This document shows positions 46,052-63,956 of a stretch of DNA of 64,000 nt, piece by piece (the stretch's first letter is position 1; every line of letters begins with the position of its first letter). A program made the translations under genes and the position numbers. Source of the DNA: an uncultured delta proteobacterium (GTDB taxonomy: Bacteria > Desulfobacterota > Syntrophobacteria > Syntrophobacterales > Syntrophobacteraceae); contig CAWEHK010000028.1 of the NCBI GenBank assembly GCA_963808625.1, positions 12,625 to 76,624 of the forward strand. Reading direction: 5' to 3'. The notes below the pieces were generated by a model that saw only the letters and a list, made by a program, of their open reading frames with translations, did not search any database and was not told where the DNA came from.

Positions 46052-46170
46052 GTTACTCATCACTCATTACTCACTACCCACCACTCACCACTCGTTACTC
46101 ATCACTTAGCACTCATTACTCATCACTTAGCACTCATCACTCATCACTCATCACTCATTACTCATCACTC
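46052..46170 (-). repeat. Heptamer tandem repeat (ACTCATC/ACTCATT on the + strand)n
   Basis: About 16 units overlapping the molybdoenzyme stop codon. Confidence 0.85.
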
Positions 46171-48250
46171 AACACCCTTACCCTAACGAAGGTATCATGG
46201 AGCGCCGGACTGCCCCCGACCTTATCCGAAACGTTTGCCGAAAGCACGCTGTCCGACACCCCCTTGTGGAAGCAGCGCGTCGCCCTTTGTGCTTCGTGGC
46301 CGAAGCCGTGGAGCATGAAAACTGTTTCCGGATGGATATGGTCGGTGACGAAGGCCCGGATGACGCCGGCTCCTTTCGAGGAGCTCACCTCCACGGACAT
46401 GCCGTCGCTGATCCCGAGTTTGGCCGCCTGTTTCGAGTTGATCCACAGGAGATTCTCCGGCACGATTTCGCTCAAATACGGATTGTTCTGCGTCGAGACA
46501 TGGGTGTGCGCAGCGCACCGTCCAACGGTCAGGCGGAACTGCCCTTCTTCGGGTCGAGGTACCGGTTCATAGGGAGGAAACGACGGGAAACCGGCGCCCT
46601 CGAGCAGGGAAGAAGCGATCTCGATCTTTCCCGACGGCGTTTTCAGCTTGATCCCATCATTGCGGTCCCAGAAAATCTGTTGACTGGCATACGACACAAA
46701 CCCCTTGGCGGAAAAATCCTCGAGCGTGAACCCCGTACCCTCCAACTGCCACCGCACCAGGTCTTCCATCGTTTCAAAGGGGAAATACCCACCGACCCCC
46801 AAGCGTTCAGCAAGTTTCTTTAGAAGTACGGAGCCCGGCAGGGTATCGTAGCGCGGCGCCACTGCCTGCAAGCGCAAAAACAGTTGCGGCTTCAGACCAT
46901 CGGCCTGCTGGACGAGTCGTCCGTTCCAGGTAGATGGATTCCGGCAGGACCACATCCGCGTACCAGGCGATATCGCTGAAATTGATATCGATGGAAACGA
47001 TCAGATCGAGCTTATCCAGGGCCTGCCTTGTGAGATTGGAGTCGGGAATCGACATCAGCGGATCGAAACGATTGGCGATAAGAGCTTTGATGGGATAGGG
47101 GTCCTCTTCCAAAATGGCAAAGGGCAGCATTTGTGCGACTCCGTGGTTGCCATCGGGAAGGGGCAGTGCTGCCGTACCCACCTTGTCGAAGCGCGGCATC
47201 GTCGGCTTGGGCAGATCCTGCTCGGTGAGCTTTCGGGGGGCCTTCCTGCCCACTTCGCCGGACCCTTTTTTGAAGAACAGCCCCCCCTCAGCCTCGATGC
47301 TCCCCATTAGAGCATTGAGGATCAGGATCGAACGCCGCAGATAGATCTCGTTGGTGTAACTGGCTCCGCGATAGCCCATGTGGAAGATGACGGCGGGCTT
47401 CTCCTGGCTTGCTTCTCGCGCCAGCGTTACAATCTCTTGGGCAGGGATACCGGTCTCGACCTCGGCCCATTCCGGGGTATAGGGGCGCACAAAATCTTCG
47501 AGCTGCGCCAGCCCGTGCACCCAGCGCTCGACAAAAACGGCGTCATAGAGCCTTTCTTTAAGGATGACATGGATCAGGGCGTAGTTGAGGGCAAGGTCGG
47601 TGCCGGGACGGATCATCCAGTAGCGGTCGGCTTTGGTCGCCGTGACGCTTACCCTGGGGTCGATATACGTCAGTTTTGCGCCCCTTTCCATCGCCTCCCA
47701 CAAGGCATTCACCGCTTTGACTTCGATGGCTTCAAAAATATTGCGCCCATAGAGAATGATGTTCCTGCTGTTCTTCAGGTCCATGCCGACCTGGGCATCG
47801 GTGTGACCGAAAAGGGAGCGACAGGCCGTGTTGACCGAACCTTTACAGAGGGCATCGTGAGTGAAGTGATTGGGTGACCCGAAGAGCACGCATGAAGGTT
47901 TTGCTCACGTGCGTGCTCAGGTTCGTCCGCTCCCCGAACAGGACGCTGTGGGCTCCATGCTTTGCGATGATGTCTTTGAGCTTGTCTGCGACAAAATCGA
48001 GGGCCTCATCCCACGTCGCTTTCCGCCACTCGCCCGCACCCCGCGCCCCCGTCCGCAGCAGCGGCGTCTGCAATCGTTCGGAATCGTTCAGCAGAGCGAT
48101 CCCCGCGGCGCCGCGGGGGCACAGGCTCCCTTCGATTCCGGGCACGTGCGGATTCCCCTGGATCCAGCTCACCTGGCCGTTCTCGGTAGTGACCCTGATG
48201 GGACACCGCACCGAACACATGAAACATAAACTGTAAACCTCTTTTGACAT
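46158..48250 (-). CDS. Mo-bisPGD oxidoreductase catalytic subunit, PhsA/PsrA (thiosulfate/polysulfide reductase)-like, no Tat signal (2 frameshifts)
   Basis: CFMCSVRC..LCPRG N-terminal 4Fe-4S, THDALC putative Mo-ligand Cys, IRPGTDLAL, ADVVLPE, KTPSGKIE, FMLHGFG. Confidence 0.88.
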
Positions 48251-49489: not shown

Positions 49490-49682
49490 CAAAGAGTTGC
49501 GTGATGCGAACGCTTTGGACCCAACCGACCGAGTGAGTTTAGGAATCTTCCGTCCCCCGGGTCCTGTTCCGCTTCCCCAAGCCGATGCGAATTAAGGATA
49601 GGAATGGGCGTTTTCGCTCCAAGCTCCGGTCCTTTCGTTTATGGTTGAGATGGTTGTACCTACAATTTCCAGGAGGTGATTG

Positions 49683-50910
49683 ATGAAAGTGAAAATGAAA
49701 TGGATTTTCAATTTGACGGTCGCGGTTGCCCTGGCTGTCTCCCCTCTCCTGCGGCCCTGCCGGCCTGCGCCCAGGCTCCGCAGGACGCTCCCCAGCAGGC
49801 CGCACCGGAGAAACCCCCGAGTCGTCGGGAGTGACTTGGGCCTTGCAGGGAAAATTGGTGAGGCCATCAAGAACGCTCCGGTCGGCAAGGGGAAAGGGCA
49901 GATCGATCCCGGCGCCCCGCCAGGAGTCTTCGGCATTCCCGGCGCGCCCCAGGTGAATTATATACTGGCCATTTTCTGGGCTATCTGGGTGGGGTGGATT
50001 TTCTCCACCGTTGGCGCCTTTGGCGGGATAATGGCCGGCGTCGGTCACATGAGTGTCTATGGACTGGGGGATTATGCACGGACTTTTAAGGATACCGTCC
50101 CTGCTCTCAACAAGACCCTCACCGACAGCATCCGTACCTCGAACCAGTGGCTCGTCGGTCTTTCTGCCGTATTGAGCGTCATCAATTACTTGAAATCCAA
50201 GCGCATGTCATGGCCGCTTGGCCTTGCCCTGGGCGCAGGTTCCATCGTCGGCGCCTTCAGCGCGGCCTCCCTTACCGGCGGCAAGGTCAGCTTCAGCCAG
50301 TATCAGGGATGGTTTGGTTTTTTTGTTCTGGTGGTGGCAGGATTCCTTTTTTACGAAACCACACCCCGAGGGGCAGGCCAGCAAGAAGGCGGCCAAAGCA
50401 GCGACCCAGGCTTTCGAACAAACCGTGAAGGAAAAAGGGGATGTCTGCGCTTTGGGCGTATGCGCCAAGGATTGGGGAATCACCCGGTCGACTTTCACCT
50501 TCTTCGGTTCGGAATTCAGCTTCAACCCCATCTGGGCCTTTTTCGGTGGTGTCGTTATTGCGGCAATTTCCGCATTCATCGGCGTCGGTGGCGGATTTCT
50601 TTATGTACCCTATTTAACCACTTTTGTCGGACTTCCCATGTATATCGTGGCCGGCACTTCCGCCCTGGCCGTGTTCATCAGTATGGTCACGAGCATCACC
50701 ACCTATATCCAACTGGCTGGGGCGGGCATGGACTGGGGCCTCGTCGGCATCCAGCTGGTGGGGGTTTTCATCGGCTCCATGATTGGCCCACGGACGCAAA
50801 AGTACATTCCGGACATTTGGCTGAAGCGATTGTTCATCGTCCTGGCCCTGTATGTCGGGATCGGTTACTTCACCAAGGGGTTCTTCGGCCAGGCTTGGGT
50901 GCCCATGTAA
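49683..50910 (+). CDS. Sulfite exporter TauE/SafE family protein with N-terminal signal-like extension (frameshifted)
   Basis: WVGWIFSTVGAFGGIMAGVG and IGVGGGFLYVP..AGTSAL repeats; AGGAGG RBS. Confidence 0.88.
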
Positions 50911-50985
50911 AGAGCGTTTTCCGCGCCCGGACCGCCGCCGACCGAGGGACCGGGCGCATTCATCATCCCCATGTTGAACAGGTGA

Positions 50986-51516
50986 ATGGCCATGCTGGAA
51001 TTGTTTGACACCGTCTTGATCAGTTTTTACCGAATAACCGGCAATCCCCTCTGGGACTATTTCCTCGGCACCTTCCTGCTCGCCCTGCTGGCGGTCCTGG
51101 TGGGGCAAGTTACGCTATTCCTGGTATATCGCGCCAACCGGAGCCATCTCGAGGACCTCGACAACGAGCTTGCGAACCTGAACCGCCTCACCGCCAGCGC
51201 CATGCAAATGGGCGATAAGCAAAGTTACAAGTCGCTGAACAAGGAAGCAAATGACACCTACGGACACGTTTTCTTCAACCGCTTCGGCCTTTCGGCGGCC
51301 TCCCTCTGGCCGGTCTTCTTCGCCCTGGCGTGGATGCAGGAGCGCTTCGCCCCCATCGCCATCCCGGTCCCCTGGATCAGTTTCAAGGCCAATTACTTTG
51401 TGGTATTTCTCCTGTCCTACATCGCCGCCACCATCCTCTTCCGCCGGACCAAAAGACGTCTATTCGGCTTTTCCAAAGAATCCGCAGAGCACGCCTTAGT
51501 GCCCCACACTTTATGA
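50986..51516 (+). CDS. Hypothetical membrane protein co-oriented with tauE
   Basis: Three hydrophobic segments, YKSLNKEANDTYG and SAASLWPVFFALAWMQERF motifs. Confidence 0.7.
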   Translation: MAMLELFDTVLISFYRITGNPLWDYFLGTFLLALLAVLVGQVTLFLVYRANRSHLEDLDNELANLNRLTASAMQMGDKQSYKSLNKEANDTYGHVFFNRFGLSAASLWPVFFALAWMQERFAPIAIPVPWISFKANYFVVFLLSYIAATILFRRTKRRLFGFSKESAEHALVPHTL

Positions 51517-51732: not shown

Positions 51733-52626
51733 CTATTCATGGACCCTCTGCCCCTCGAGGATGAGCGGCAAGCCGTTCTTGGGGTTGCCGATGATGACGA
51801 TTTTGGTGTTGTTGCTGGTTGAAATTTTCTCGGTGGCTTCGATGCCTTTCCATTCGAGCAGGCTGGGGGTGATCCCCTGGGTCACGATTTTTTGGAATTC
51901 CGCGATCCCCTGGGCTTCAATCTTCTTTCTTTCCGCTTCCTGCCTTTCCCGGTCCAGGATGAACTTCATCTGCTCCGCCTGCTGCTCCGCCTGCAGCTTG
52001 CGCTCGATGGCCTCGGAAACCATTTGGGGCAACTTCACCGATCTTAGAAGCACCTTTTCCACCAGCAGCCCTTTTCCCGTGCAACGGGTTCGGCCAGCTT
52101 TTCCATCTCTGCCACAATGGCTTCCCGGCCGGCGGTGTAGAGGGCCTTGGCGTCGTACTCGGCGGTAACCGTGCGCAGCGACGCTCCGGATGAGGGGTTT
52201 CAGAATGGTTTCCTCGTAGCCCATACCGATCGTCTTGTAGATCTCCGGCGCCTTCTCGGCGAGCACCCGATTCCACACGGAAACCTCGAGATGCGTAATC
52301 AAGCCTTCCCGCGAGGGCGTATCCATGACTTCCTTCAACTCCTGGGTCCTCGTGGAAAAGACATGAATCTCGGCGAGAGGGTTACGCACATTGACCCCGG
52401 GAGTAAGAGAGGCGGGTGAGACCTGTCCCCAGAAATCCACCACTCCCACCGTGCCCGCCGAGATGATAACGAAGCACCGGAAGAGGACTCCCAGGACCAA
52501 TCCGCCAAGGGCAAACCGAACCAGCATCACCGGCGGGAAGGGTTGCATGCCGGACGCTTTTCGATAAGTCATGTACACGACCCCCAAAGCCACCGCGCTA
52601 ATTACGAAAAAGGCGATCACCAACAT
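51733..52626 (-). CDS. Prohibitin/SPFH domain membrane protein (compensating frameshifts)
   Basis: Two N-terminal TM segments, GTVGVV, AIERKLQAEQ, EAERKKIEAQGIAEFQ, LLEWKGIEAT, GLPLIL. Confidence 0.9.
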   Translation of the reverse strand: MLVIAFFVISAVALGVVYMTYRKASGMQPFPPVMLVRFALGGLVLGVLFRCFVIISAGTVGVVDFWGQVSPASLTPGVNVRNPLAEIHVFSTRTQELKEVMDTPSREGLITHLEVSVWNRVLAEKAPEIYKTIGMGYEETILKPLIRSVAAHGYRRVRRQGPLHRRPGSHCGRDGKAGRTRCTGKGLLVEKVLLRSVKLPQMVSEAIERKLQAEQQAEQMKFILDRERQEAERKKIEAQGIAEFQKIVTQGITPSLLEWKGIEATEKISTSNNTKIVIIGNPKNGLPLILEGQRVHE

Positions 52627-52647
52627 TTTCTCCTCCCCCAAAAAAAG

Positions 52648-52902
52648 CTATTCCAGGTCTGGAAGTTCCCTGCGTGACAGCAGGAGCCTTATGCTGCGGG
52701 GTTCGTACGGCTTCTTTTCAATCAAGCCCTTTCTCTCGAGCTGCACTACCATACCATGGACAGAGGGAGGAGTGGTTTTAAAGTACCTCTGCATGTCGGC
52801 TTCTGCCGGAGGATAGCCATTGAGCTTCGTGTAGTAGTATATGAACGCCAGATATTGCCCCTGCTTGTGCGTGTAACGGCCTCTCGATTTTCGCGCATCC
52901 AT
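52648..52902 (-). CDS. Small LexA-N/MarR-like winged-HTH DNA-binding protein (no peptidase domain)
   Basis: YTHKQGQYLAFIYYY..GYPPAEADMQRYF..PPSVHGMVVQLERKGLI..RSIRL. Confidence 0.82.
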   Translation of the reverse strand: MDARKSRGRYTHKQGQYLAFIYYYTKLNGYPPAEADMQRYFKTTPPSVHGMVVQLERKGLIEKKPYEPRSIRLLLSRRELPDLE

Positions 52903-53271
52903 CGATGTGCCTTTCCGCCCCTTGATCATGCATACATTGACCTGCCTCCAGGATGTCCGCCGGTTTCGTTCAAAACCCCCTGGCCCCTTTTCCTTAATGT
53001 CTTATTAAACAAGGCATCGGTCTTGAAGGATAGCGCAACCTCACCTTTGATTCAATCTCAGTCCCCGACCTGGTGCTCCAATAAGGTGGGAAGCGGGAAG
53101 CGCAGCCGGTTTCGCTGGTCTTGCCACGTCTTACGCTCGCGCTACCGGGAGATCAGCACACAATTGACCGTTTCTTTGAAAGAGGATAGCTTGCTGCTGT
53201 CACCAAGAGCAATCAAAGGTTCGCTGAATTGTCGATTTGGCGCAAAAGGTCCTCAAAAGGTGGAGCCCAAG

Positions 53272-54408
53272 ATGAAAATTCTGCAAATTGTTTTGCTGGT
53301 ATTCATTCTTTCACAACCCTCGCTCGTTCCGGGAGCACCCCAGGCCAATGCCGCCGCATCCAGCCGGCAAAAACTTCTGGTCGCCGTGACCGAGGATCCT
53401 CCTTACACGATGAAAACTGAGGATGGCCGATGGACGGGATTCAGCGTGGACTTGTGGTCCCAGGTCGCTCGCACCCTCGCGTGGGACTATGAACTCCTGG
53501 AGATATCATTCGAGGATATCATCGTGGCACTCCAGCGGGGCGCCATCGATCTCTCCATTGCCTGCATTTTTCAAACCCCCGAGAGGGAGAGGCTCTTTGA
53601 ATTTTCCACGCCCATAGGAAGCACCCGCTTGGGGCTGGCCACCCTGCCAAATAGAATCGAACATCCATGGTTGTCGGCTTTGCGCATCTTATTTTCCTGG
53701 AGTACCCTGAAAGTCCTTGGGATACTCTTCTTCATAGTATTTTTGACCGGCCTGGTTTTCTGGTTAATCGAGCGCAAACCGAACCCGGAACACTTTGGAG
53801 GTGGTTTCATCAAAGGAATCACGTCGGGCATCTATTGGGTGGGATCAACGCTAGCCTCGGGGGTTTGCTTCGGGATCGATCTGAAAACCTTGCCGGGAAG
53901 GATTGTCGGCCTTCTCTGGATGTTCGTTTGTGCGATTGTGCTGAGCGCCTTCATTGCCTCGCTCACCTCTTCGCTGACCTTGACGAAACTCACGACCCCC
54001 GTGATCCAATGGCACGACCTCAAGTCCATGCACCTCGGAACCGTAAAAGGCACGGTACCGGCAACGCTTCTGCAAAAGATGAATGCGAAATTCACGCTCT
54101 TCCCCGAAGAAGAGGACGTGTTGCAGGCACTTTTTGACAAGCGGGTGGACGGATTTCTCTATGATGAGGTCACCCTGAATTACTATGCATCCAGATCCGA
54201 TGGGCCATCCATCAGCGTGTATCCAACCGCCATGAAGCGCCTTCATTTTGCCTTCAGCATGCCCAACGGAAGCTCCATTCGAAAAGAAATCAACGCCTCG
54301 CTGCTATTGCTTATGAATGAACCCTACTGGGACTTTTTGGCGGACCACTACGGTCTTTCGGAGAATCGCAAGGAAGAACCGACTTGGGGAAGGCGAGCAA
54401 GCAAGTAA
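53272..54408 (+). CDS. Prokaryotic iGluR-like ligand-gated channel (split SBP_bac_3 domain + 2 TM + pore loop)
   Basis: Signal peptide; DPPY..GFSVDLW..TPERERLFEFSTP; TM1 ending FWLIERKPNPEHF; pore helix GIYW; KTLPGRIVGLLWM..AFIASLTSSLT; S2 lobe LGTVKGT. Confidence 0.85.
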   Translation: MKILQIVLLVFILSQPSLVPGAPQANAAASSRQKLLVAVTEDPPYTMKTEDGRWTGFSVDLWSQVARTLAWDYELLEISFEDIIVALQRGAIDLSIACIFQTPERERLFEFSTPIGSTRLGLATLPNRIEHPWLSALRILFSWSTLKVLGILFFIVFLTGLVFWLIERKPNPEHFGGGFIKGITSGIYWVGSTLASGVCFGIDLKTLPGRIVGLLWMFVCAIVLSAFIASLTSSLTLTKLTTPVIQWHDLKSMHLGTVKGTVPATLLQKMNAKFTLFPEEEDVLQALFDKRVDGFLYDEVTLNYYASRSDGPSISVYPTAMKRLHFAFSMPNGSSIRKEINASLLLLMNEPYWDFLADHYGLSENRKEEPTWGRRASK

Positions 54409-54759: not shown

Positions 54760-55551
54760 ATGAACAAGCAAGCCCTATGCATCGGTATTAACGACTACCC
54801 TGGTACTCAAAACGACCTCTCCGGCTGCGTGAATGACGCCAATGACTGGGCTGCCGCCCTCGGGGCGCGCGGTTTCGCTGTTACCAAACTGATCGATGCC
54901 CAGGCCAGCAAGGCGGCCATGGTCGCGGCCATAGGCAAGATCATCGGCAATGCCTCACCCAACGACACGGTGGTCATTACCTACTCCGGACATGGGACCT
55001 GGGTGCCCGACCAGAGCGGCGACGAGCCGGACCATCGTGACGAAGGCCTCTGCCCCTGGGACATCGGCCAAGGCAACGTATTGCTGGACGATGACCTGCA
55101 TGTGCTGTTGTCGAACCATGCGGCTGGCGTGCGCATCATCCTCATTTCCGACAGTTGCCACTCTGGCTCCGTTTCCCGTGGCGATACGTCCGATCTGGAT
55201 CCCGGCATGCCGCGTGCCCGCTTCCTGCCCCCGGAAGTGTGGATGACCGGCGTCACGCTGCCGACCGAAACCCCCAAGCAGCTTTCCGGCGGCATTGCCC
55301 GTGCGGGAGGCGATCTACTCATGGCCGCCTGCCTCGATACGCAGTACAGCTGGGACACAAGCTTCAACGGTCGTCCCAATGGCGCATTTACCTATTATGC
55401 CCTGAAGACCCTGGCCAAGCTGGGAGCTAACGTTAACTACTTGGAATGGTTCAAGAATATCAGCCCAACCTACCTGCCGACCAACCAGCTGCCACAGAAC
55501 CCGCGACTGTTCGGTTCCGCCAGGGCGCGCAAATGGAAAGTGTTCGCCTGA
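54760..55551 (+). CDS. Stand-alone metacaspase (peptidase C14)
   Basis: ALCIGINDYPG..LSGCVNDA, YSGHG (His 54991), ISDSCHSG (Cys 55156), GAFTY, QNP; AGGAG RBS. Confidence 0.95.
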   Translation: MNKQALCIGINDYPGTQNDLSGCVNDANDWAAALGARGFAVTKLIDAQASKAAMVAAIGKIIGNASPNDTVVITYSGHGTWVPDQSGDEPDHRDEGLCPWDIGQGNVLLDDDLHVLLSNHAAGVRIILISDSCHSGSVSRGDTSDLDPGMPRARFLPPEVWMTGVTLPTETPKQLSGGIARAGGDLLMAACLDTQYSWDTSFNGRPNGAFTYYALKTLAKLGANVNYLEWFKNISPTYLPTNQLPQNPRLFGSARARKWKVFA

Positions 55552-55564
55552 AGCAGTCAGCCAC

Positions 55565-55586
55565 CGGACGCGCTGTCGCGTCCGGT
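55565..55586 (+). terminator. GC-rich hairpin after the caspase gene (no U-tract; attenuator or processing stem)
   Basis: CCGGACGCG-CTGT-CGCGTCCGG perfect 9-bp stem. Confidence 0.4.
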
Positions 55587-55687
55587 CCGGCTGTGGCCGC
55601 ATGCAGCCTGGCCGGGAAGAGCCGGCCATAACTCTCCTCTCTCTCGATCCCGGTCGTGCCCTGCGTAACTTTGCCACTTAAGCCGCC

Positions 55688-55930
55688 ATGACCGGACCGC
55701 TTTTCATCAGCTATCGCCGCAGCCATCAGGCCGGAGCACTCGGGGTCAAGGCGATGCTGGAAACTGCCGGGTTGCACGTCTGGCTCGACCTTGATGAAAT
55801 CGACACCGATCGCACGCTGCTTGCCGAGCACCTGCTTTGGTTCTCCGAATGCGACCTCGGCAGGTTGGACAGCGATTAACGCATGATCCGTGGTTACGTC
55901 CGCCAGTTGGCCGGTCTCGAACCCGACTGA
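55688..55930 (+). pseudogene. TIR-domain gene remnant (N-terminal TIR strand/helix fused to a probable C-terminal tail; internal stop)
   Basis: PLFISYRRS..LETAGLHVWLDLDEI is the TIR_2 N-terminus; rest of the TIR fold absent; TAA at 55877 then in-frame RMIRGYVRQLAGLEPD* to 55930. Confidence 0.72.
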
Positions 55931-55966
55931 CGCCTATCCCGAATCAGCCACACCAAGGAGTCCGCC

Positions 55967-58900
55967 ATGACCACTTTCAAGCCTCCGCTGAAACTTCTTC
56001 TCCCTCTTGCTACACAACCTGAAGAAGGCGTGAGCGGGACGCTGCCGCGCGTGCTGGCCCACCCGTCCAGCCGCGGCGAAGGCGGCGGGGCTTTGGGCCT
56101 TTTGCCGAATGTGAAGCCGCTCAAGACGTGGCCGTTGGCCCAGGCCAGCCGTAGCGGAGATGCTCCGGCGCACAAGGAAACCGCGGCCGATCGCAGGTTG
56201 CTGGCGCTGGAGGCGGGCGACGGGACGGCGATCTTTATCCGTGCCGATGCGCTGGCCGAGCGGGTGGCGCGGGTACGGCCGGAGGCGGTGGCGGGCGAGG
56301 CGGTCGATTTGGCAAAATTCCGCGATCCGGAGGCAACGAGCCGAGGGCTTGGGGACTGGTTGTGGAGGCAGGTTACGGAATTGCAACTCGAGCCGGACGA
56401 GATTACCGATCTCGCGAAGCAGAAGCTGGGCGACTGGCTTAAGGATGTGGCGCTGGGCAAGCTGGAGGATGCCGCGGTGATGGCGGCCTCGACTTGGGGC
56501 GCCAAGGCGCTGATGGAAGCGATCGAGGAAAGGCTGGCGGGCGAGCCGGGGCTTTACCAGTGGCAAGGCGGCGTTTTGCAGCCGCGCGACCTGTGCCGCG
56601 CCGGCGACGCGCGCCTGACCGGATGGTCGGGCAGGCCGGCGCTGGTCTTCATCCACGGCACTGGTTCGCACACCCTGGGCAGCTTCGGCGATCTGCCGGA
56701 CAGCGACGACTGGCGGGCCCTGGCCGCGATCTACGAGGACCGGGTGTTCGGTCTGGAGCATCGCACCTTCTCGCTGGGGCCGATCGACAACGCCCTGGCG
56801 CTGGCCGAGACTCTGCCCAAGGGAGCGACGATTCATCTCGTGACGCATTCGCGCGGCGGCCTGGTCGGCGATCTGCTTTGCCTGGGGGCACTCTCGGACG
56901 AAGTAGAACGGCTGATCGGTGAATTCCGTCGCGAACCCCCTCCGCACGAGGCCGAGCGCGAAGCCGGCGACGCGAGTGAGACGCTGAAAAAAGCACGCGA
57001 GAAGTTGTCGGCCGAGGAGCAGGATAAGCTGCGCAAGCTGGTCAAGCTGCTGGATGAGAAGGCGTTGAAGGTGGAGCGCTATGTCCGGGTCGCCTGTCCC
57101 GCGGCGGGTACGGCCTTGCTCTCGGATAACCTGGAGGTTTTTCTTTCCTGTTTACTGGAACTGGTGCGACGCGGCGGCGCCTGGGCGGCGGGTGCTGCGG
57201 CCGGGGCGCTGGCTGGCGCGGTGTCCGGCGGTATTGCCGGGCCGACAGCAGCCAGGCTGGCACGCGATGCCTTTGACCGTGGTTTGAAGCTGTTGGCGCG
57301 TGTCGTAGTGGAAATTGCCGACAAGCGGCTGGAGCCGCAATTGGTGCCCGGTATCGAGGCGATACTTCCGGAGTCGCCGATGGGGACATTCCTGGCCCGT
57401 GCGCCGCGTCGGCCCGGCGTAAGCATGGCCGTGATCGCCGGCGACATCGAAGGCGGCGGCATTCTTAAGCGCATCGTGGTGACGTTCACCGACTGGATGT
57501 TCTTCGACCGCGCCGACAACGATCTGGTGGTGGACACCGACTCTATGTATGCCGGCATTGCCGGCCGGGGAGGGCATGCCTTGTTTGATCAGGGCGCCGA
57601 GGTAAGCCACTTCGCCTACTTCCGCAACCGGCGTACGCGCAGTGCGCTGCGCGGCTGGCTCGAGGAGGCCGAGCCGCGCCGACTTCCGGAATGGACCGAG
57701 ATGGAAACGCCGCTGGCCGAGCGCGCGGCGCTGGCGCGCGGTATCGAGTCACCGCCGCTCGACAACAGTCGTCCCGTGGTAATCTTGCTGCCGGGCATCA
57801 TGGGTTCTCATCTGGAAATCGACCGCAAAGAAGCGGATAAGCCGGGCTCCGGCGACCGCGTCTGGCTCGACGCGATCGACCTGTCGCACGGCGGTCTGCG
57901 CAAGCTTGCCATCGACAAACCCGGCGTGCAACCGGTTGAGCTGGTCGACCTGGCTTACGGCAAGCTGGCCCGACATCTGGAAAAAACGCACCGGGTCATT
58001 TGCTTTGCCTACGACTGGCGTTTGGCCAACGAGCAGCAGGTGGAGCTTCTGGCAGAAGAGGTCCGAAAGGCGCTGAAGCGGCACCCCGACCAGCCCGTCC
58101 GCATCCTCGCCCACAGCATGGGCGGCCTGGTGGTGCGGGCGCTGAACGCCAGATATCCCGGAACTCTGGGAGGACATCGTCAGGCGCGACGGCGGCCGGC
58201 TGGTGATGCTCGGTACGCCCAACCACGGTTCGCACCTGATGGTGGAAACCTTGCTTGGCCGTTCGGACACGATCCGCCTGCTCGGCCGCATCGATTTGGG
58301 CAACAAGTTACAGACGGTGCTGAACATCGTGGCCGGCTTTCCCGGCGCTTTGCAGTTGCTGCCCCGACCGGGCTTCCGGGATGCCGGCGGCGACGCGGTG
58401 CGGGATTTCTTCGACCCGGCAGTCTGGCAGCAACTGGCGGAGCTCAACGATGACAGGTGGTTCGGCAAGGACCTTGGCGGTCGACCGGCGGAAGACGATC
58501 TTGGAAGAGCCAAAAAGTTCTGGGAGACACTGGCTGCGGCGCCGCCCCTCACTCATCCCGAGCGTATCGCCTACATCTATGGCCAGGCGGAGAACACGCC
58601 TTGCGGTCTGAAGATTCAGACCGATTCCAGCGGTAATCCGTGCGGTCTGATCATGCTTGGCACGCCGTATGGCGACGGTTCGGTGAGCTGGGCTTCCGGC
58701 AAAATGGACTGGCTACCCGACGAGCGCTGCTGGCTGATGCCTGTCGACCACACCGGTCTCGTCAATACGCCCGAATACTTCGACGAGCTCGAGGCGCTGC
58801 TGGCCACGGGCTGTGCCAGGCGCCTCGCCCGCCTGCCGGTGGCGCGCGGCGAAGCGGCGGCGCCGGTGCGCGAATACCAGGCCGGTCCGATGCCGGGTTA

Positions 58901-61900
58901 CCCGAGCGAGCGGGAATTGGTTGCCGCACTGGTCGGCGGCCATTCCCGGCCGCGCCGACAGAAGGCGAAGCGCGTCGAACTGAAGGTGCTGGTGCGGGCC
59001 GGCGATTTGCGCAGCCTGTCGATTCCCGTGCTGTGCGGGCATTACATCGGCGATCCCATCGCCGGCGCCGAATGGGTGATCGACCGCGATCAGGTGGGCG
59101 GAGCCTTGACCAAACGCGAGCGGCTGGGCGTGCATGCCGGCCCGCTCAGCACCGCCTCGGTGGTGTTGATGCCGCGCAGCCCGGAGGAAGTCCGGCGCGG
59201 TACCGGCAAGGGCGCGTTGATCGTCGGCCTGGGCGAATTCGGCGAGTTGAACGCCGGTGATGTACGCGAAACGGTTCGCGCTGGCGTGTTGCGTCTGCTG
59301 CTGCATGCCGGCGACCGGCAGATCGAGCAGGGCTCCGGGGAACAACCCGATGAGGCGACGCCGGAACTCCGTCTGGCGAGCGTGTTGATCGGCTACAATT
59401 CGACAACCACTATCTCGGTCGAAGATTCGGTCGCTGCCGTCACGCTGGGCGTCGCGGAAGCCAACCGGCAGTTTTCCGAAAGCGCCGGCGGACGCCCGCG
59501 GGTACAGGTCGGGAGCCTGGAATTCATCGAGCAGTACGAGGATGTGGCGATAACCGCCGCCCATGCCGTCCATGAGCTGCCAAGGAGCCAGGCACGGGCC
59601 CTCGGCGCCCTCGGGCTGCGGTTGACAGTAGCAGACGAACTGATCTACGGCGAAGGCGTGCGTCCGCGGCTGTCAGTGGGCACCGCCGAGCATTACTGGC
59701 CGCGCCTGATCGTGACCGACCACGACCGCAGCGAATCGGGCTGCCCACCCGAGTGCTATGAAGTGCGCATCGACTCGCCGATTCCCGAAGAGGCGCGGGC
59801 AGCACTACTGGCCGCCTATGGCTGCGACCGGAACAGGAAAAATGAGTCTGATGGTACAACCAGTCCCGCACCAGCTACCCCGGCATCGTCACCCGGACGC
59901 TATCCGAACAAGCTGAAATACCTCTTTCTGTCCGAGCGGGCGCGGGCCGAAACGGTGGTTCAACAGCGCCAGCCGGGGCTGATCGAAAAACTGGTGGCCG
60001 CCGAGACCTGGAACACCAGCTACAACGCCGAAAGCGCGATCGGCCGCACGCTGTTCCAGTTGCTGGTGCCGCTCGGCTTCAAGAGCACGGCTCGCGAGAC
60101 GAGCAACCTGATGTTGGTGCTCGATGCCTACACCGCCAATCTGCCTTGGGAAATGCTGATCGCCGAAAGCGAGCCGATGGTGCTCAGGACCCGGATGGTG
60201 CGCCAGCTGGCGACCCGAAATTTCCGCCAGGCGGTGAGCGGCACCCGCCAACACAGTGCCTACGTCGTATACAACCCATCGACCGAAGGCTACTATGCCG
60301 AGTTCGGCGGCAATCGCCCTCCAGTAAAAAAGGAGGACGATCATTTGGATCCCCTGAAAAACGCCGAGGAGGAAGGTGAGGCCGTCGCGGCTTTGCTCGA
60401 AGGAGCCGGCTACCATGTCGAACGCGCGCCGGCGGAGAGTCGCGCTGCCGACGTGATCGGCCGCCTGTTCAAGCAGCCCTACCGGGTGCTCGTGGTGGCG
60501 GCCCATGGCATGTTCCAGGTGACTGACCGGCAGGGTGTTGCCCGCAGCGGCGTGGTGCTGTCGGACGGCCTGATGCTGACCGCGGCCGAGGTTGAGCAAA
60601 TGGAGGTGGTGCCGGAGTTGGTCTTCCTCAGTTGCTGCCATCTCGGTGAGGTTAACGTGGCAGAGGGCTGGGCGCCGAACAAGCTGGCCTACAGCCTGGC
60701 GCGCGAATTGATCGAAATGGGCGTGCGCTGCGTCGTGGCCGCCGGATGGAAGGTCGATGACGGTGCGGCCAAGACCTTCGCGACCACCTTCTTCGAATTT
60801 TTTGTCAAGCGCAACGAAACGTTTGGCGAAGCCATCTTCCAGGCACGCCTTGCCTGCTATGACCGCCATCGGGAGTGCAATACCTGGGGAGCTTACCAGG
60901 CCTATGGCGATCCGGCCTTCACGCTCGGCCCGCGAGCCGAAGGCAAACCGGCCGATCAGACGGAGATGTCGCCGGCTGAACTGGTTGACTGGCTGGAAAC
61001 CCGTCGCTTGGAAGGCGGGCGCAAAAGCAGCGACAAGGGCGATTACAAAAAAGTGGCGGCGGAGGTGAAGCGGCGCCTGGCCGCGGCGCCCGCCCATTGG
61101 GCGGCACGCCCCGATGTGCTGACGGCTTTGGGCGCGTTGCATGGCGCCTTCGGCGAAGAAGGCTTCGCGGCGGCGTGCGAGGCCTACCTCTGCGCGATCT
61201 CGGCCGAGAGCGGCGCGGGCGGCAGCGCGCCGCTAGCCGCTATCGAACAACTGGCCAACCTCGAGGCCCGCAGCGCGGAAAAACTGGTCCGCCACCTGGT
61301 AGATGTCCAAACAAGGGAGACGAACCTCGCTGAAGCCAAGGAACGTGTCGAACAGGCGATAGCCCGAATGGAGAATCTGCTGGCGCTGGCCGGGAAGTCG
61401 GCCGTAACCAGGCCCAATACTGAGCGCTGGAGCATCCTCGGCAGCGCTCGCAAGACGATGGCCGTGGTCCTGCGCGAAGGCGGGAGAGGCTGGGACGAGA
61501 TTGAACCCTGGCTGGCAAGCGCCCGCGAGGCCTATTACAAGGGCGAAGGCGACCCCTCGGCGCCCGGCTTCGACCCTTACGGCATGATCAACCGGCTGCA
61601 GCTCGATGCGCTGCTGGGCAAGCCGCCAGCCGGCTTTGCCGAGTCGGTCGCGCTATGCCAGGCTGCGGCCCGGCGGCGGTTCGCGGAGAAATTCGAATTC
61701 TGGGATGCGGTCAAGACCGTCGATGCGGAAGTAGCCGGCTGGCTGGCCACAGGCGATGTAACGGCGAGCGCTGCGGCCGATACGGCGGCGAAATTCGCGG
61801 CTGCGTACCGGAGCGAGGTGGAAAAACTCGGTCCTGAACCGCGCCAGTTCGAATCAGTCATTCGTCAGATCGAGCTTCTGGCCGACATGTTCGCCGAAAA

Positions 61901-62114
61901 GGCAAAATCGGGCGCATCCCCGGCATCTGATCAAGTGCGCAACGACGTCCTGCGGCAAGTGGCCGGCCTCCTCAAGGCGCCCGGCCCGGGCAATACGGAA
62001 AAGGGCCGGCCTGATGTCGCAGAAACCGCAGCCACAGCCCCCGCCAGCGCTCCGCCAGCGAAAGCTGTGAAAAGCGAGAAGAAGAGACCGACCAACAGGA
62101 AGGCCAAACACTGA
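55967..62114 (+). CDS. Giant ~2050-aa protein: two alpha/beta-hydrolase (lipase-like) domains + M17-N/macro-like domain + CHAT protease + TPR (single frameshift near 58158)
   Basis: FIHGTGS/THSRGG; LPGIMGS/AHSMGG/GTPNHGS/GDGSV; CHAT LPWEML, AAHG, FLSCCH, AGWKVDD, WGAYQAYGDP; removing one base at 58157-60 gives continuous RYPELWEDIVRRDGGRLVMLGTP; AAGGAG RBS. Confidence 0.85.
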
Positions 62115-62340: not shown

Positions 62341-62527
62341 GGAAAATGCTGAGTGATGGCGGCGATGAATTCCTCGGCAGAAAAGATCTTGAAGTTCTTT
62401 TGTTGCCCCCATGGGTCATGGCCGAGCGGTAGAGGACTTTGCCGGTGTCCTCCAGGTAGGTAATCTTCTGTTCTGAGAAAGCGTTTCGCACGATATATTC
62501 CGCAAGTTGCCTGCTGTCACGGACATC
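62341..62527 (-). pseudogene. IS91-like (Y2 rolling-circle) transposase fragment
   Basis: [44 protein letters not shown] resembles the Y2_Tnp C-terminal region. Confidence 0.62.
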
Positions 62528-62529
62528 CA

Positions 62530-62790
<261 letters not shown>

Positions 62791-62791
<1 letters not shown>

Positions 62792-63029
62792 GGGGTCTAA
62801 AAAGTTCTTTCATCCCGTCACCCCGGCGAAGGCCGGGGTCCAGAAGGTCTTGAAATCCTGGATTCCGGCTTTCGCCGGAATCTTCCATGCAAGGGGCTTG
62901 CGCCCCGTTCAATGAAAGTAAAATTGGCATACAATTTGCTTAAAAAAATAGAATCTATAAATGATTGATTTGCCATGATAAATTTTTACTTTCGCCGGAA
63001 TGACGTAGGGGAACTTTTTGGACACGCTC
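62791..63029. mobile_element. 239-bp MITE with TAA target duplication carrying CCGGCGAAGGCCGG / CCGGCTTTCGCCGGAAT palindromes
   Basis: TAA at 62788-90 and 63030-32; TIRs GGGGGTCTAAAAAGTTC vs GAGCGTGTCCAAAAAGTTC. Confidence 0.65.
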
Positions 63030-63668
63030 TAAGCGTCGGTTCTCAACGGAGGCTTAACCGGCCATTGAATCCCATCCAGCTTCAAGGGCTGCAAGCCCTT
63101 GGCCTCAAACCAGCCATCTTTGCCGAGCAACCCAGGGCCGGATGACCACCACCGCGAGGTGGGCCTGAAAAATACCCACTATCCCATCAATTTGGGTGCG
63201 GAAGGTAAGCTCCCACTCACCACCACCGAGTTCTCCGCCTGGGCGCCCGGCATGGTATGACGGTGTCCTATTCTGTTGACAAAACTCTCATCAGCTGTAA
63301 TTTGGGCACACCGCAGGTAAAGACTATTTCTCCTTTCATCGCAAATCAGGCCCTGCGTTGAAGGATTTGATGAAATAATTTATCAAGATGCTGCCGACTT
63401 CTTTGCATCTGGACTGAGGGCTGCGAGCCTGGTCCGAGTCGGCCGCATGGCGGTAGTGGATGAAAGTATTCTCATCGGCTCAATCGGCGAAATCGCTTTA
63501 TTTCAAACCTATGCGAAAGAGACCGGACCGGCCGGCAATACAAGTTGAGCGATTAACGCAGGTGATGCGGTTGCCACTGAAGATTGAAATCCATGCCAGC
63601 GGAGCGAAGAGCCGCAGACGCTCCGACCGGACCCGGGATCGCTGGAGCGCGCAGCAGGGGGGAAAGAG

Positions 63669-63956
63669 ATGAAGAGAACGCAAAGGGAGGCTGGCGACCG
63701 CGCGGCTGATCTGGAAGAGTTGTGCGGAGATCCCATCGATGCGCATGGCGACGACGAGCAGCATCGACAACCGTCCGTTCCTGCGATGCCTCCACGGTTA
63801 AGGCTTGTGCCTCTGGCGCCTCTCGCGGCTTGAGGAAGCCAAGCGCCGTTTCGAACGGATGCTGTGGCTCAACCCCTCGGACAACCAGGGTGGCGCTTCC
63901 TGGTCGACGAGATGCGGGCGAAGACCGCCTGGGAAGACCACCAAAATAAGCGATGA
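63669..63956 (+). pseudogene. Internally deleted TPR-containing protein remnant
   Basis: DLEELCGDPIDAHGDDEQ joined out of frame to IDNRPFLRCLHG*GLCLWRL..EEAKRRFERMLWLNPSDNQG..FLVDEMRAKTAWED; in-frame TAA. Confidence 0.6.

Follow-up and report, generated by a model that had tools for sequence, protein, structure and literature searches.

Within a 64,000-nucleotide window of the genome of an uncultured delta proteobacterium (part of contig C28 of a 54-contig, 4.8-Mb assembly; "the window" denotes this whole stretch), three reading frames on the same (+) strand encode a stand-alone C14 peptidase of the metacaspase type, a TIR-like stub and, in a 6.1-kb gene, a giant protein that combines two hydrolase domains with a CHAT protease (Table 1). 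We tentatively propose that the giant is a polyprotein made as a zymogen and serving regulated cell death: CHAT would cut at arginine joints of the chain and in the metacaspase, and the lipase-like hydrolases would thereby be freed. This proposal is supported by active sites that are near-invariant in 82 distant homologues, and it builds on conserved arginine sites at the domain joints and on a protease gene that recurrently precedes the giant gene.

Domain architecture of the giant protein

From its N terminus, the giant is composed of a pro-region, hydrolase 1, hydrolase 2, a macro-like fold, CHAT and a TPR-S tail. Conservation was analyzed in a distant set of 82 full-length homologues of at least 1,650 amino acids with a median identity of 34% (taken from among P0168–P0271), and structure models were obtained for the N-terminal half of an intact relative (L046; predicted local distance difference test score, pLDDT, of 85.5) and for the C-terminal half of the window copy (82.8). 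An Atlas search with the pro-region was uninformative (best score 0.76).

Both serine-hydrolase domains that the initial annotation had recognized were recovered, with nucleophile elbows at the serines encoded at 56849 and 58115. The triad of hydrolase 1 is kept in 82/82 distant homologues, and its model (residues 191–565) resembles alpha/beta hydrolases with a Z of ~13. Hydrolase 2 is LPLA2/LCAT-like both in fold and in its Ser-Asp-His triad: the L046 model (residues 594–936) aligns with LPLA2 (4x97) over 302 residues (VIA Z 27.3, root-mean-square deviation 2.9) and also matches LCAT and Tle4, and the triad is retained in nearly all distant homologues (Ser 79/82, Asp 82/82, His 82/82). Judged from this fold, hydrolase 2 may act as a phospholipase or transacylase. 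The domain annotated as macro was found as a fold between hydrolase 2 and CHAT, where the model ties between a leucine aminopeptidase N-domain (LAP 7y1s, VIA Z 15.4) and macroH2A (1zr3, 14.8) and has no Pfam macro match.

The CHAT assignment, also anticipated, is confirmed by a match to PF12770 above the cut-off, a His-Cys dyad in AAHG and SCCH motifs (the latter with Cys at 60633/60636) and a separase-like fold. Its best structural match is separase (5fby, VIA Z 21.7), followed by Csx29 (19.8), gingipain R (18.2) and SAVED-CHAT (15.3); a profile of the C-terminal half against PDB sequences gave one weak match, again SAVED-CHAT (E 1.9). The catalytic His and Cys as well as the W and D of a WxVxD motif are present in 82/82 distant homologues, and we take this invariant motif to recall the Arg-binding Asp of separase. 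The annotated TPR region is more precisely a TPR-S tail; it resembles the ASK1 regulatory region (8qgy, VIA Z 15.8) and is predicted to be the sensor.

Conserved arginine sites at the domain joints

Five Arg-(Gly/Ser/Ala) sites of the giant are predicted protease cut sites. Counted over 77 rows with less than 70% identity, and in the numbering of the read-through sequence, R-[GSA] occurs at position 36 in 67 rows, at 62 in 73, at 126 in 75, at 591 in 65 and at 960 in 74. Before residue 188, R62 and R126-G127 are the sole columns conserved in at least 90% of the 82 distant homologues. The linkers were compared after anchoring on motifs, with unanchored rows omitted (30/82 distant, 19/77 near). 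An RG lies in the 45-residue linker before hydrolase 2 in 32/52 distant and 42/58 near homologues and in the linker after hydrolase 2 in 41/52 and 41/58, respectively, compared with 5–8/52 and 2–11/58 for five control segments of equal length.

In L046, three of the five sites are located in loops with a pLDDT below 50, and such loops make up 59/960 residues. R35 and R129 lie within loops of this kind, a disordered loop (577–591) marks the inter-hydrolase linker, and R588 and R945 bracket the LPLA2-like domain. The Arg sites and the CHAT dyad are retained where no protease adjoins the giant, including a 92% complete genome (G407) in which neither a caspase nor a clostripain was detected, and cutting in cis is therefore favoured. 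A complex prediction for the L046 caspase with residues 1–600 of its giant scored 0.00 and carries no weight either way.

The metacaspase and its association with the giant gene

The upstream C14 protease has the intact SGHG/DSCH dyad that was originally noted (His78, SGHG at 54985; Cys133 of DSCH at 55156) and matches solved metacaspases in sequence, namely GSU0716 (3bij, E 1.8e-31), yeast Yca1, AtMC4, AtMC9 and TbMCA2. The linker past its catalytic Cys carries Arg140 (SVSR↓G, 55177), the same Arg-small motif as in the giant, and this site is predicted to be the activation cut; partner caspases have Arg (32/33) or Lys (1/33) at this position. The acidic residues D84, E89, D94, E95, D101, D110 and D111, which we take to be calcium ligands, are invariant. 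The solved relatives together with the linker Arg/Lys suggest that the enzyme may be Arg/Lys-specific and Ca2+-dependent.

Neighbourhoods were counted in the best 80 of 172 metagenome loci. A caspase gene lies directly 5′ of the giant gene on the same strand in 49/80 of them; this co-occurrence, which the initial annotation had anticipated, amounts to 44/66 loci with at least 1 kb of upstream sequence and to 19/32 after dereplication at 70%. Two caspase subfamilies occupy the upstream slot. Among the host's wider kin, the giant is preceded by a caspase in G402 and G425, by a C11 clostripain in G066, G404, G415 and the paralogous locus on contig C53 of the host genome (G000), and by neither in G407, G416 and G102. 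Clostripain is Arg-specific.

Several further loci contain related genes. Several frameshifts interrupt the distant giant paralogue of the C53 locus (L101:4679-17273), and a clostripain and an nSTAND1 gene lie ahead of it. G416 carries a GDSL lipase-caspase fusion with a DSCHSGSVSRA linker (L144:457-2337), a second coupling of lipase and caspase. In L017, L031, L074 and L082, a 243-amino-acid protein is encoded 5′ of the caspase; it starts with MVSRG in 3/4 copies, the fourth being cut. It matched an Evf-domain cluster in the Atlas (0.94, rank 28) and nothing in Pfam, and is possibly another Arg-gated cargo. Sampled caspases without a giant adjoin SLATT, papain-like or NusG genes, and in the host phylum those in L156, L160, L163, L177 and others adjoin NusG-like and apparent polysaccharide-synthesis genes.

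Table 1. Features of the metacaspase–giant locus in window coordinates.
Feature	Position	Strand	Remarks
Stand-alone metacaspase C14	54760..55551	+	263 amino acids; Pfam C14 E 4e-24
TIR stub	55688..55879	+	63 amino acids, truncated; TIR_2 E 1e-4, 37/122 positions, under Pfam cut-off
Giant gene	55967..62114	+	~2,050 amino acids when the break is bridged by an X
Pro-region	55967..56536	+	Beta-rich; poorly conserved save Arg36, Arg62, Arg126-Gly127
Arg36 (pro-region)	56072	+	Predicted cut
Arg62 (pro-region)	56150	+	Predicted cut
Arg126-Gly127 (pro-region)	56342	+	Predicted cut
Hydrolase 1 (DUF7379)	56537..57661	+	Alpha/beta fold; PF24096 E 4e-26; Ser295/Asp519/His548
Arg591-Gly	57737..57742	+	Linker joining the hydrolases; predicted cut
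Hydrolase 2	57764..58802	+	LPLA2/LCAT/Tle4-like; LCAT E 8e-7; Ser717/Asp903/His928; holds the frameshift
Frameshift	58157..58166	+	Single; splits the giant into open reading frames 55967-58453 and 58203-62114
Arg960-Gly (LPVAR↓G)	58845..58850	+	3′ of hydrolase 2; predicted cut
Macro-like fold	58971..59615	+	Also leucine aminopeptidase N-domain fold; conserved GHY..D, E, R
CHAT protease	59685..60935	+	Both sub-domains; PF12770 E 3e-32; His1513 (60504), Cys1557 (60636)
TPR-S tail	60966..61973	+	Helical repeats; PF20308 E 2e-8

Integrity and origin of the window copy

The giant gene had been annotated as one open reading frame, but is split by a frameshift, the only break in its 6.1 kb. Among the matches listed, 113/119 other homologues have a length of at least 1700 amino acids, and the closest one is intact (2,046 amino acids, 78% identity to the window giant). 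Housekeeping genes just upstream are also interrupted, an oxidoreductase gene by two frameshifts and a transporter gene by one; both are whole in most relatives compared, and two relatives are also split. The housekeeping genes with demonstrated or suspected frameshifts lie at 46158-48250, 49680-51008 and 51733-52641; that of a Band 7 gene was suspected by eye. The C53 paralogue is broken several times. Since homologues are whole, nearby housekeeping genes carry indels and the paralogue is broken, we read the frameshift as probable assembly noise; in the cell, the gene is probably intact. The assembly has whole copies of rpoB, gyrA, valS and ileS, the last of which shares its contig with the giant, so the indel burden is local and not general. 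No near-identical public contig spans the break, and one divergent contig lacks a base near 58148.

The G+C content of the giant gene is 65.3% and that of the metacaspase gene 60.4%, compared with 55.7±2.5% across 774 6-kb bins of the genome, one of which is equally high; the high G+C content first judged by eye is thus confirmed. The nearest named relatives of the giant among the matches listed are from Betaproteobacteria (58–62% identity), and giant-type matches in the host's 60 nearest genomes have merely 33–42% identity. High G+C content, closest relatives in Betaproteobacteria and low identity in host kin indicate that the window copy was likely acquired horizontally. The mobile-element debris reported at the borders was not confirmed: the flanks contain sequences with further copies in the genome and a piece of 23S rRNA, but 0/10 flank frames match Pfam at E≤0.1. 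The rRNA piece (260 bp, window 62531-62791, 98% identity to C22:2109-2368) lies within 62341-63762, a segment that is either captured DNA or a misassembly. It is flanked on one side by a transposase-like repeat, which we assume to be an IS91-type transposase remnant and which has no Pfam match, and on the other by a palindromic repeat with ~30 genome copies. Immediately 5′ of the metacaspase, on the same strand, lies a glutamate-receptor-like gene (SBP_bac_3 + Lig_chan, 52756-54408), which is absent from the recurring neighbour clusters of related giant loci. A promoter scan gave 0 sites, and none of the listed public sequencing runs, which include no RNA run, contains more than 0.10 of the words.

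The TIR stub

The initial annotation described a three-gene system with a TIR remnant. Three co-oriented frames are present, one of them a TIR stub, but the conserved system consists of two genes and the stub is incidental. The PADLOC SAVED-TIR model matches it with E 6e-9 over 43 amino acids. No continuation was found in another frame, 0 of the 80 related metagenome loci have a match, and a longer parent was found among 0/96 candidates. TIR was therefore rejected as a core component and is not supported as a constant third partner. The giants of G404 and G102 carry complete TIR domains as fusions, and a short TIR open reading frame lies 5′ of the caspase in 2/80 loci.

Distribution of the giant family

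The giant has 918 matches among 8,000 candidates scored, with Methyloversatilis thermotolerans, Thauera and Zoogloea among the named ones, and its N-terminal half matches 1,918 clusters (50% identity) at E≤1e-30, a number that takes in fragments as well as lone hydrolases. Matches at E≤1e-15 occur in 8/60 host relatives, 6 of them giant-type, and in 3/400 genomes of a phylum sample. A scan of genome contigs found only 5 distant loci, and none of the 9 plasmid records reaches 80% coverage. TPR-S genes lie within three genes of the giant in 7/80 loci and TIR clusters near it in 4/80.

Proposed mechanism and alternative explanations

In the order of events that we favour, if tentatively, the TPR-S tail would read a threat signal and switch on the giant's own CHAT domain. 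Once active, CHAT is predicted to cleave after Arg both at the conserved joints of the giant and within the metacaspase linker. The metacaspase activated in this way would reinforce cleavage at these sites, and the phospholipase-like hydrolases thus released would break down the membrane, leading to cell death. Two observations put CHAT at the start: sites and dyad are kept in giants that have no protease gene next to them, and it is the giant that bears the sensor-type TPR-S. We infer cutting after Arg, this order, an action on membrane lipid, death as the outcome, an immune role of the locus and infection as the trigger. Release of a lipase by caspase-family proteolysis was already part of the initial annotation; the gene pairing, the exchange for clostripain, the Arg sites at the joints and a precedent in Lysobacter (see below) speak for it, whereas its TIR and defence-island elements did not hold up. 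A broader version, possible but doubtful, would be a self-processing immune polyprotein of a sensor, a separase-like initiator and two lipases, with five Arg joints, an exchangeable executioner (two metacaspase subfamilies or clostripain), further Arg-gated cargo and an LPLA2/LCAT-like killer, running as a cascade independent of CRISPR (clustered regularly interspaced short palindromic repeats) and triggered perhaps by membrane damage or predation, not by phage alone.

Several observations weigh against a CHAT-driven immune polyprotein. No PADLOC or NCBIfam model matches the giant. R61 of L046 lies in a confident region (pLDDT ~80), 5/10 conserved R-[GSA] positions are inside folded domains and probably structural, and proline gives 8 comparable conservation peaks; therefore it is the position of the sites, and not motif conservation alone, that carries the cut-site argument. 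Some partner caspases have D, E or W as the P1′ residue of their linker. An adjacent caspase is absent from 22/66 informative loci, and a giant was found within the 1.5-kb flanks of the caspase in 0 of 27 other same-phylum genomes with the caspase family; the caspase-giant link is one-way. Quick trees of the two proteins share one 7-row clade that includes the window pair, and show several swaps (Mantel rho 0.34). In 4/5 genomes with an unpartnered giant a caspase is encoded elsewhere, so that cuts may also be made in trans, and in a MoxR-vWA locus on contig C35 of the host genome the CHAT that precedes a hydrolase-1 homologue lacks both His and Cys. Most giant neighbours are housekeeping genes, stable in several clades. 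The expected enrichment in defence islands was not seen and a defence-island location was rejected: among 147 neighbour proteins (from 147 of 163 representatives, scanned without a background control), 13 had PADLOC matches at E≤1e-8, most of them generic and ~4 plausibly related to defence.

The main rival reverses the order, with the metacaspase or clostripain as initiator, which damage would likely switch on through Ca2+ or a small molecule, and CHAT as a released effector or second stage. It owes this place to the caspases elsewhere in genomes with an unpartnered giant and to the dead CHAT of C35, and would also fit the likeness of the caspase, with its seven invariant acidic residues, to Ca2+-activated eukaryotic metacaspases and the Lysobacter module, where the caspase cuts the hydrolase directly according to the main text (10.1101/2025.11.14.688446). 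We nevertheless consider it rather unlikely, given that the CHAT dyad is invariant in the distant homologues, that G407, albeit 92% complete, keeps sites and dyad with no caspase or clostripain detected, and that the 263-amino-acid caspase has no sensor domain, whereas the giant has TPR-S. Less likely still is a protease-gated lysis or lipid-remodelling function other than phage defence, in autolysis, envelope stress or cell conflict, with hydrolase 2 as an LCAT-like transacylase or phospholipase. Genes for cell-wall hydrolases (GH19, LysM-M15, GH46), which lie within three genes of the giant in 18/80 loci (redundant loci counted), fit lytic death of any cause, amidases beside bacterial metacaspases are mentioned in the consulted part of an earlier study (PMC3501461), and both the stable housekeeping neighbourhoods and the small PADLOC signal would agree with such a role. 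However, TIR fusions, TPR-S and the nSTAND1 and MoxR-vWA genes that occur as neighbours point to conflict systems, the patchy spread and foreign G+C content are typical of defence cargo, and the giant has no strongly hydrophobic segment (maximum window 1.36) that would suggest export.

We regard it as improbable that the Arg sites have a structural role, that the caspase is no more than a neighbour transferred along with the giant, and that the window copy is a decaying pseudogene cluster. The frameshift and truncated TIR, the whole rpoB, ileS, gyrA and valS genes, the caspase family that mostly occurs without a giant, and the public contigs that do not bridge the break at high identity would be in agreement with this explanation. 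It is opposed by the single break in a gene so close to an intact homologue, by the local indels that also hit housekeeping genes, by isolated invariant Arg residues in unconserved loops, and by three different clan CD proteases in the same upstream slot.

The analysis yields predicted cut sites at exact positions, three catalytic centres and two proteases to order. If true, the proposed mechanism would provide a natural substrate for bacterial metacaspases and clostripains, make polyprotein processing an immune design, and suggest membrane phospholipid as a possible substrate of protease-activated hydrolases, a question that Evans et al. leave open in their main text. The giant family is large yet carries only a DUF label, and no paper on DUF7379 was found in the literature searched.

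Comparison with known systems

The closest parallel is the Lysobacter module of Evans et al., in which LcCaspase cuts the alpha/beta hydrolase LcHydrolase at a conserved R↓G and the fragments kill cells (10.1101/2025.11.14.688446, main text). As in our locus, a caspase gene adjoins that of an alpha/beta hydrolase (44/66 loci here), Arg-Gly motifs are present and the effector is lipase-like; death follows cleavage in Lysobacter, and by analogy might do so for the giant pair. In contrast, LcHydrolase is a stand-alone domain of 296 amino acids with two cuts inside it (R73 and R117), whereas the giant fuses two hydrolases whose sites flank the domains, in a chain of 2,050 amino acids that also contains a CHAT and a TPR-S. 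The partner here is a bare 263-amino-acid metacaspase, compared with 594 amino acids for LcCaspase. The terms CHAT, TPR and clostripain are absent from the main text of that report.

SAVED-CHAT, which cuts and activates PCaspase in a type III-B system (10.1101/2023.06.23.546230, as far as the text consulted goes), and Craspase share with the giant a CHAT that has a sensor region and is accompanied by another protease of the caspase family, and the fold matches include Csx29 and SAVED-CHAT. The giant differs in having no SAVED domain, fused lipase cargo and a C-terminal TPR. A CRISPR link was rejected, as no Cas model was found among the 147 scanned neighbour proteins and the giant has no SAVED.

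The PsCaspase of type IV Thoeris requires a P1 Arg with small neighbours (10.1101/2024.10.24.620036, in the portion consulted), and is thus likewise an Arg-specific caspase-like protease. A TIR piece also adjoins the window caspase, but as a TIR_2-like stub instead of an intact short TIR gene, and the window caspase has a dedicated giant partner. With a 63-amino-acid stub that has no match in the 80 loci, an identity of the window locus with type IV Thoeris was rejected. G102 (L147) encodes a ThsB_TIR protein and a 268-amino-acid caspase, likely a type IV Thoeris system; the window caspase is 33% identical over 145 amino acids to this caspase.

For MoxR-vWA (VMAP) ternary systems, Kaur 2020 predicted a joint action of caspases and alpha/beta hydrolases as an obligate pair (PMC7159879, text consulted in part). 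The host genome itself has a ternary-type conflict locus on C35 (L107:7906-14838), with TIR, a MoxR-like ATPase, an unknown gene, a dead CHAT and a DUF7379 hydrolase-TIR fusion, so that a hydrolase-1 homologue occurs in such a setting, and L027 joins both systems. The window contains no MoxR or vWA genes, which among the 80 metagenome loci were seen in L027 only, and the consulted part of PMC7159879 describes no double-hydrolase CHAT polyprotein. Nor was a description of the giant architecture found in the literature outside subscription journals and supplements. The pairing of caspase and alpha/beta hydrolase, however, is an already known theme; the new observation is the set of conserved Arg-small sites at the domain joints.

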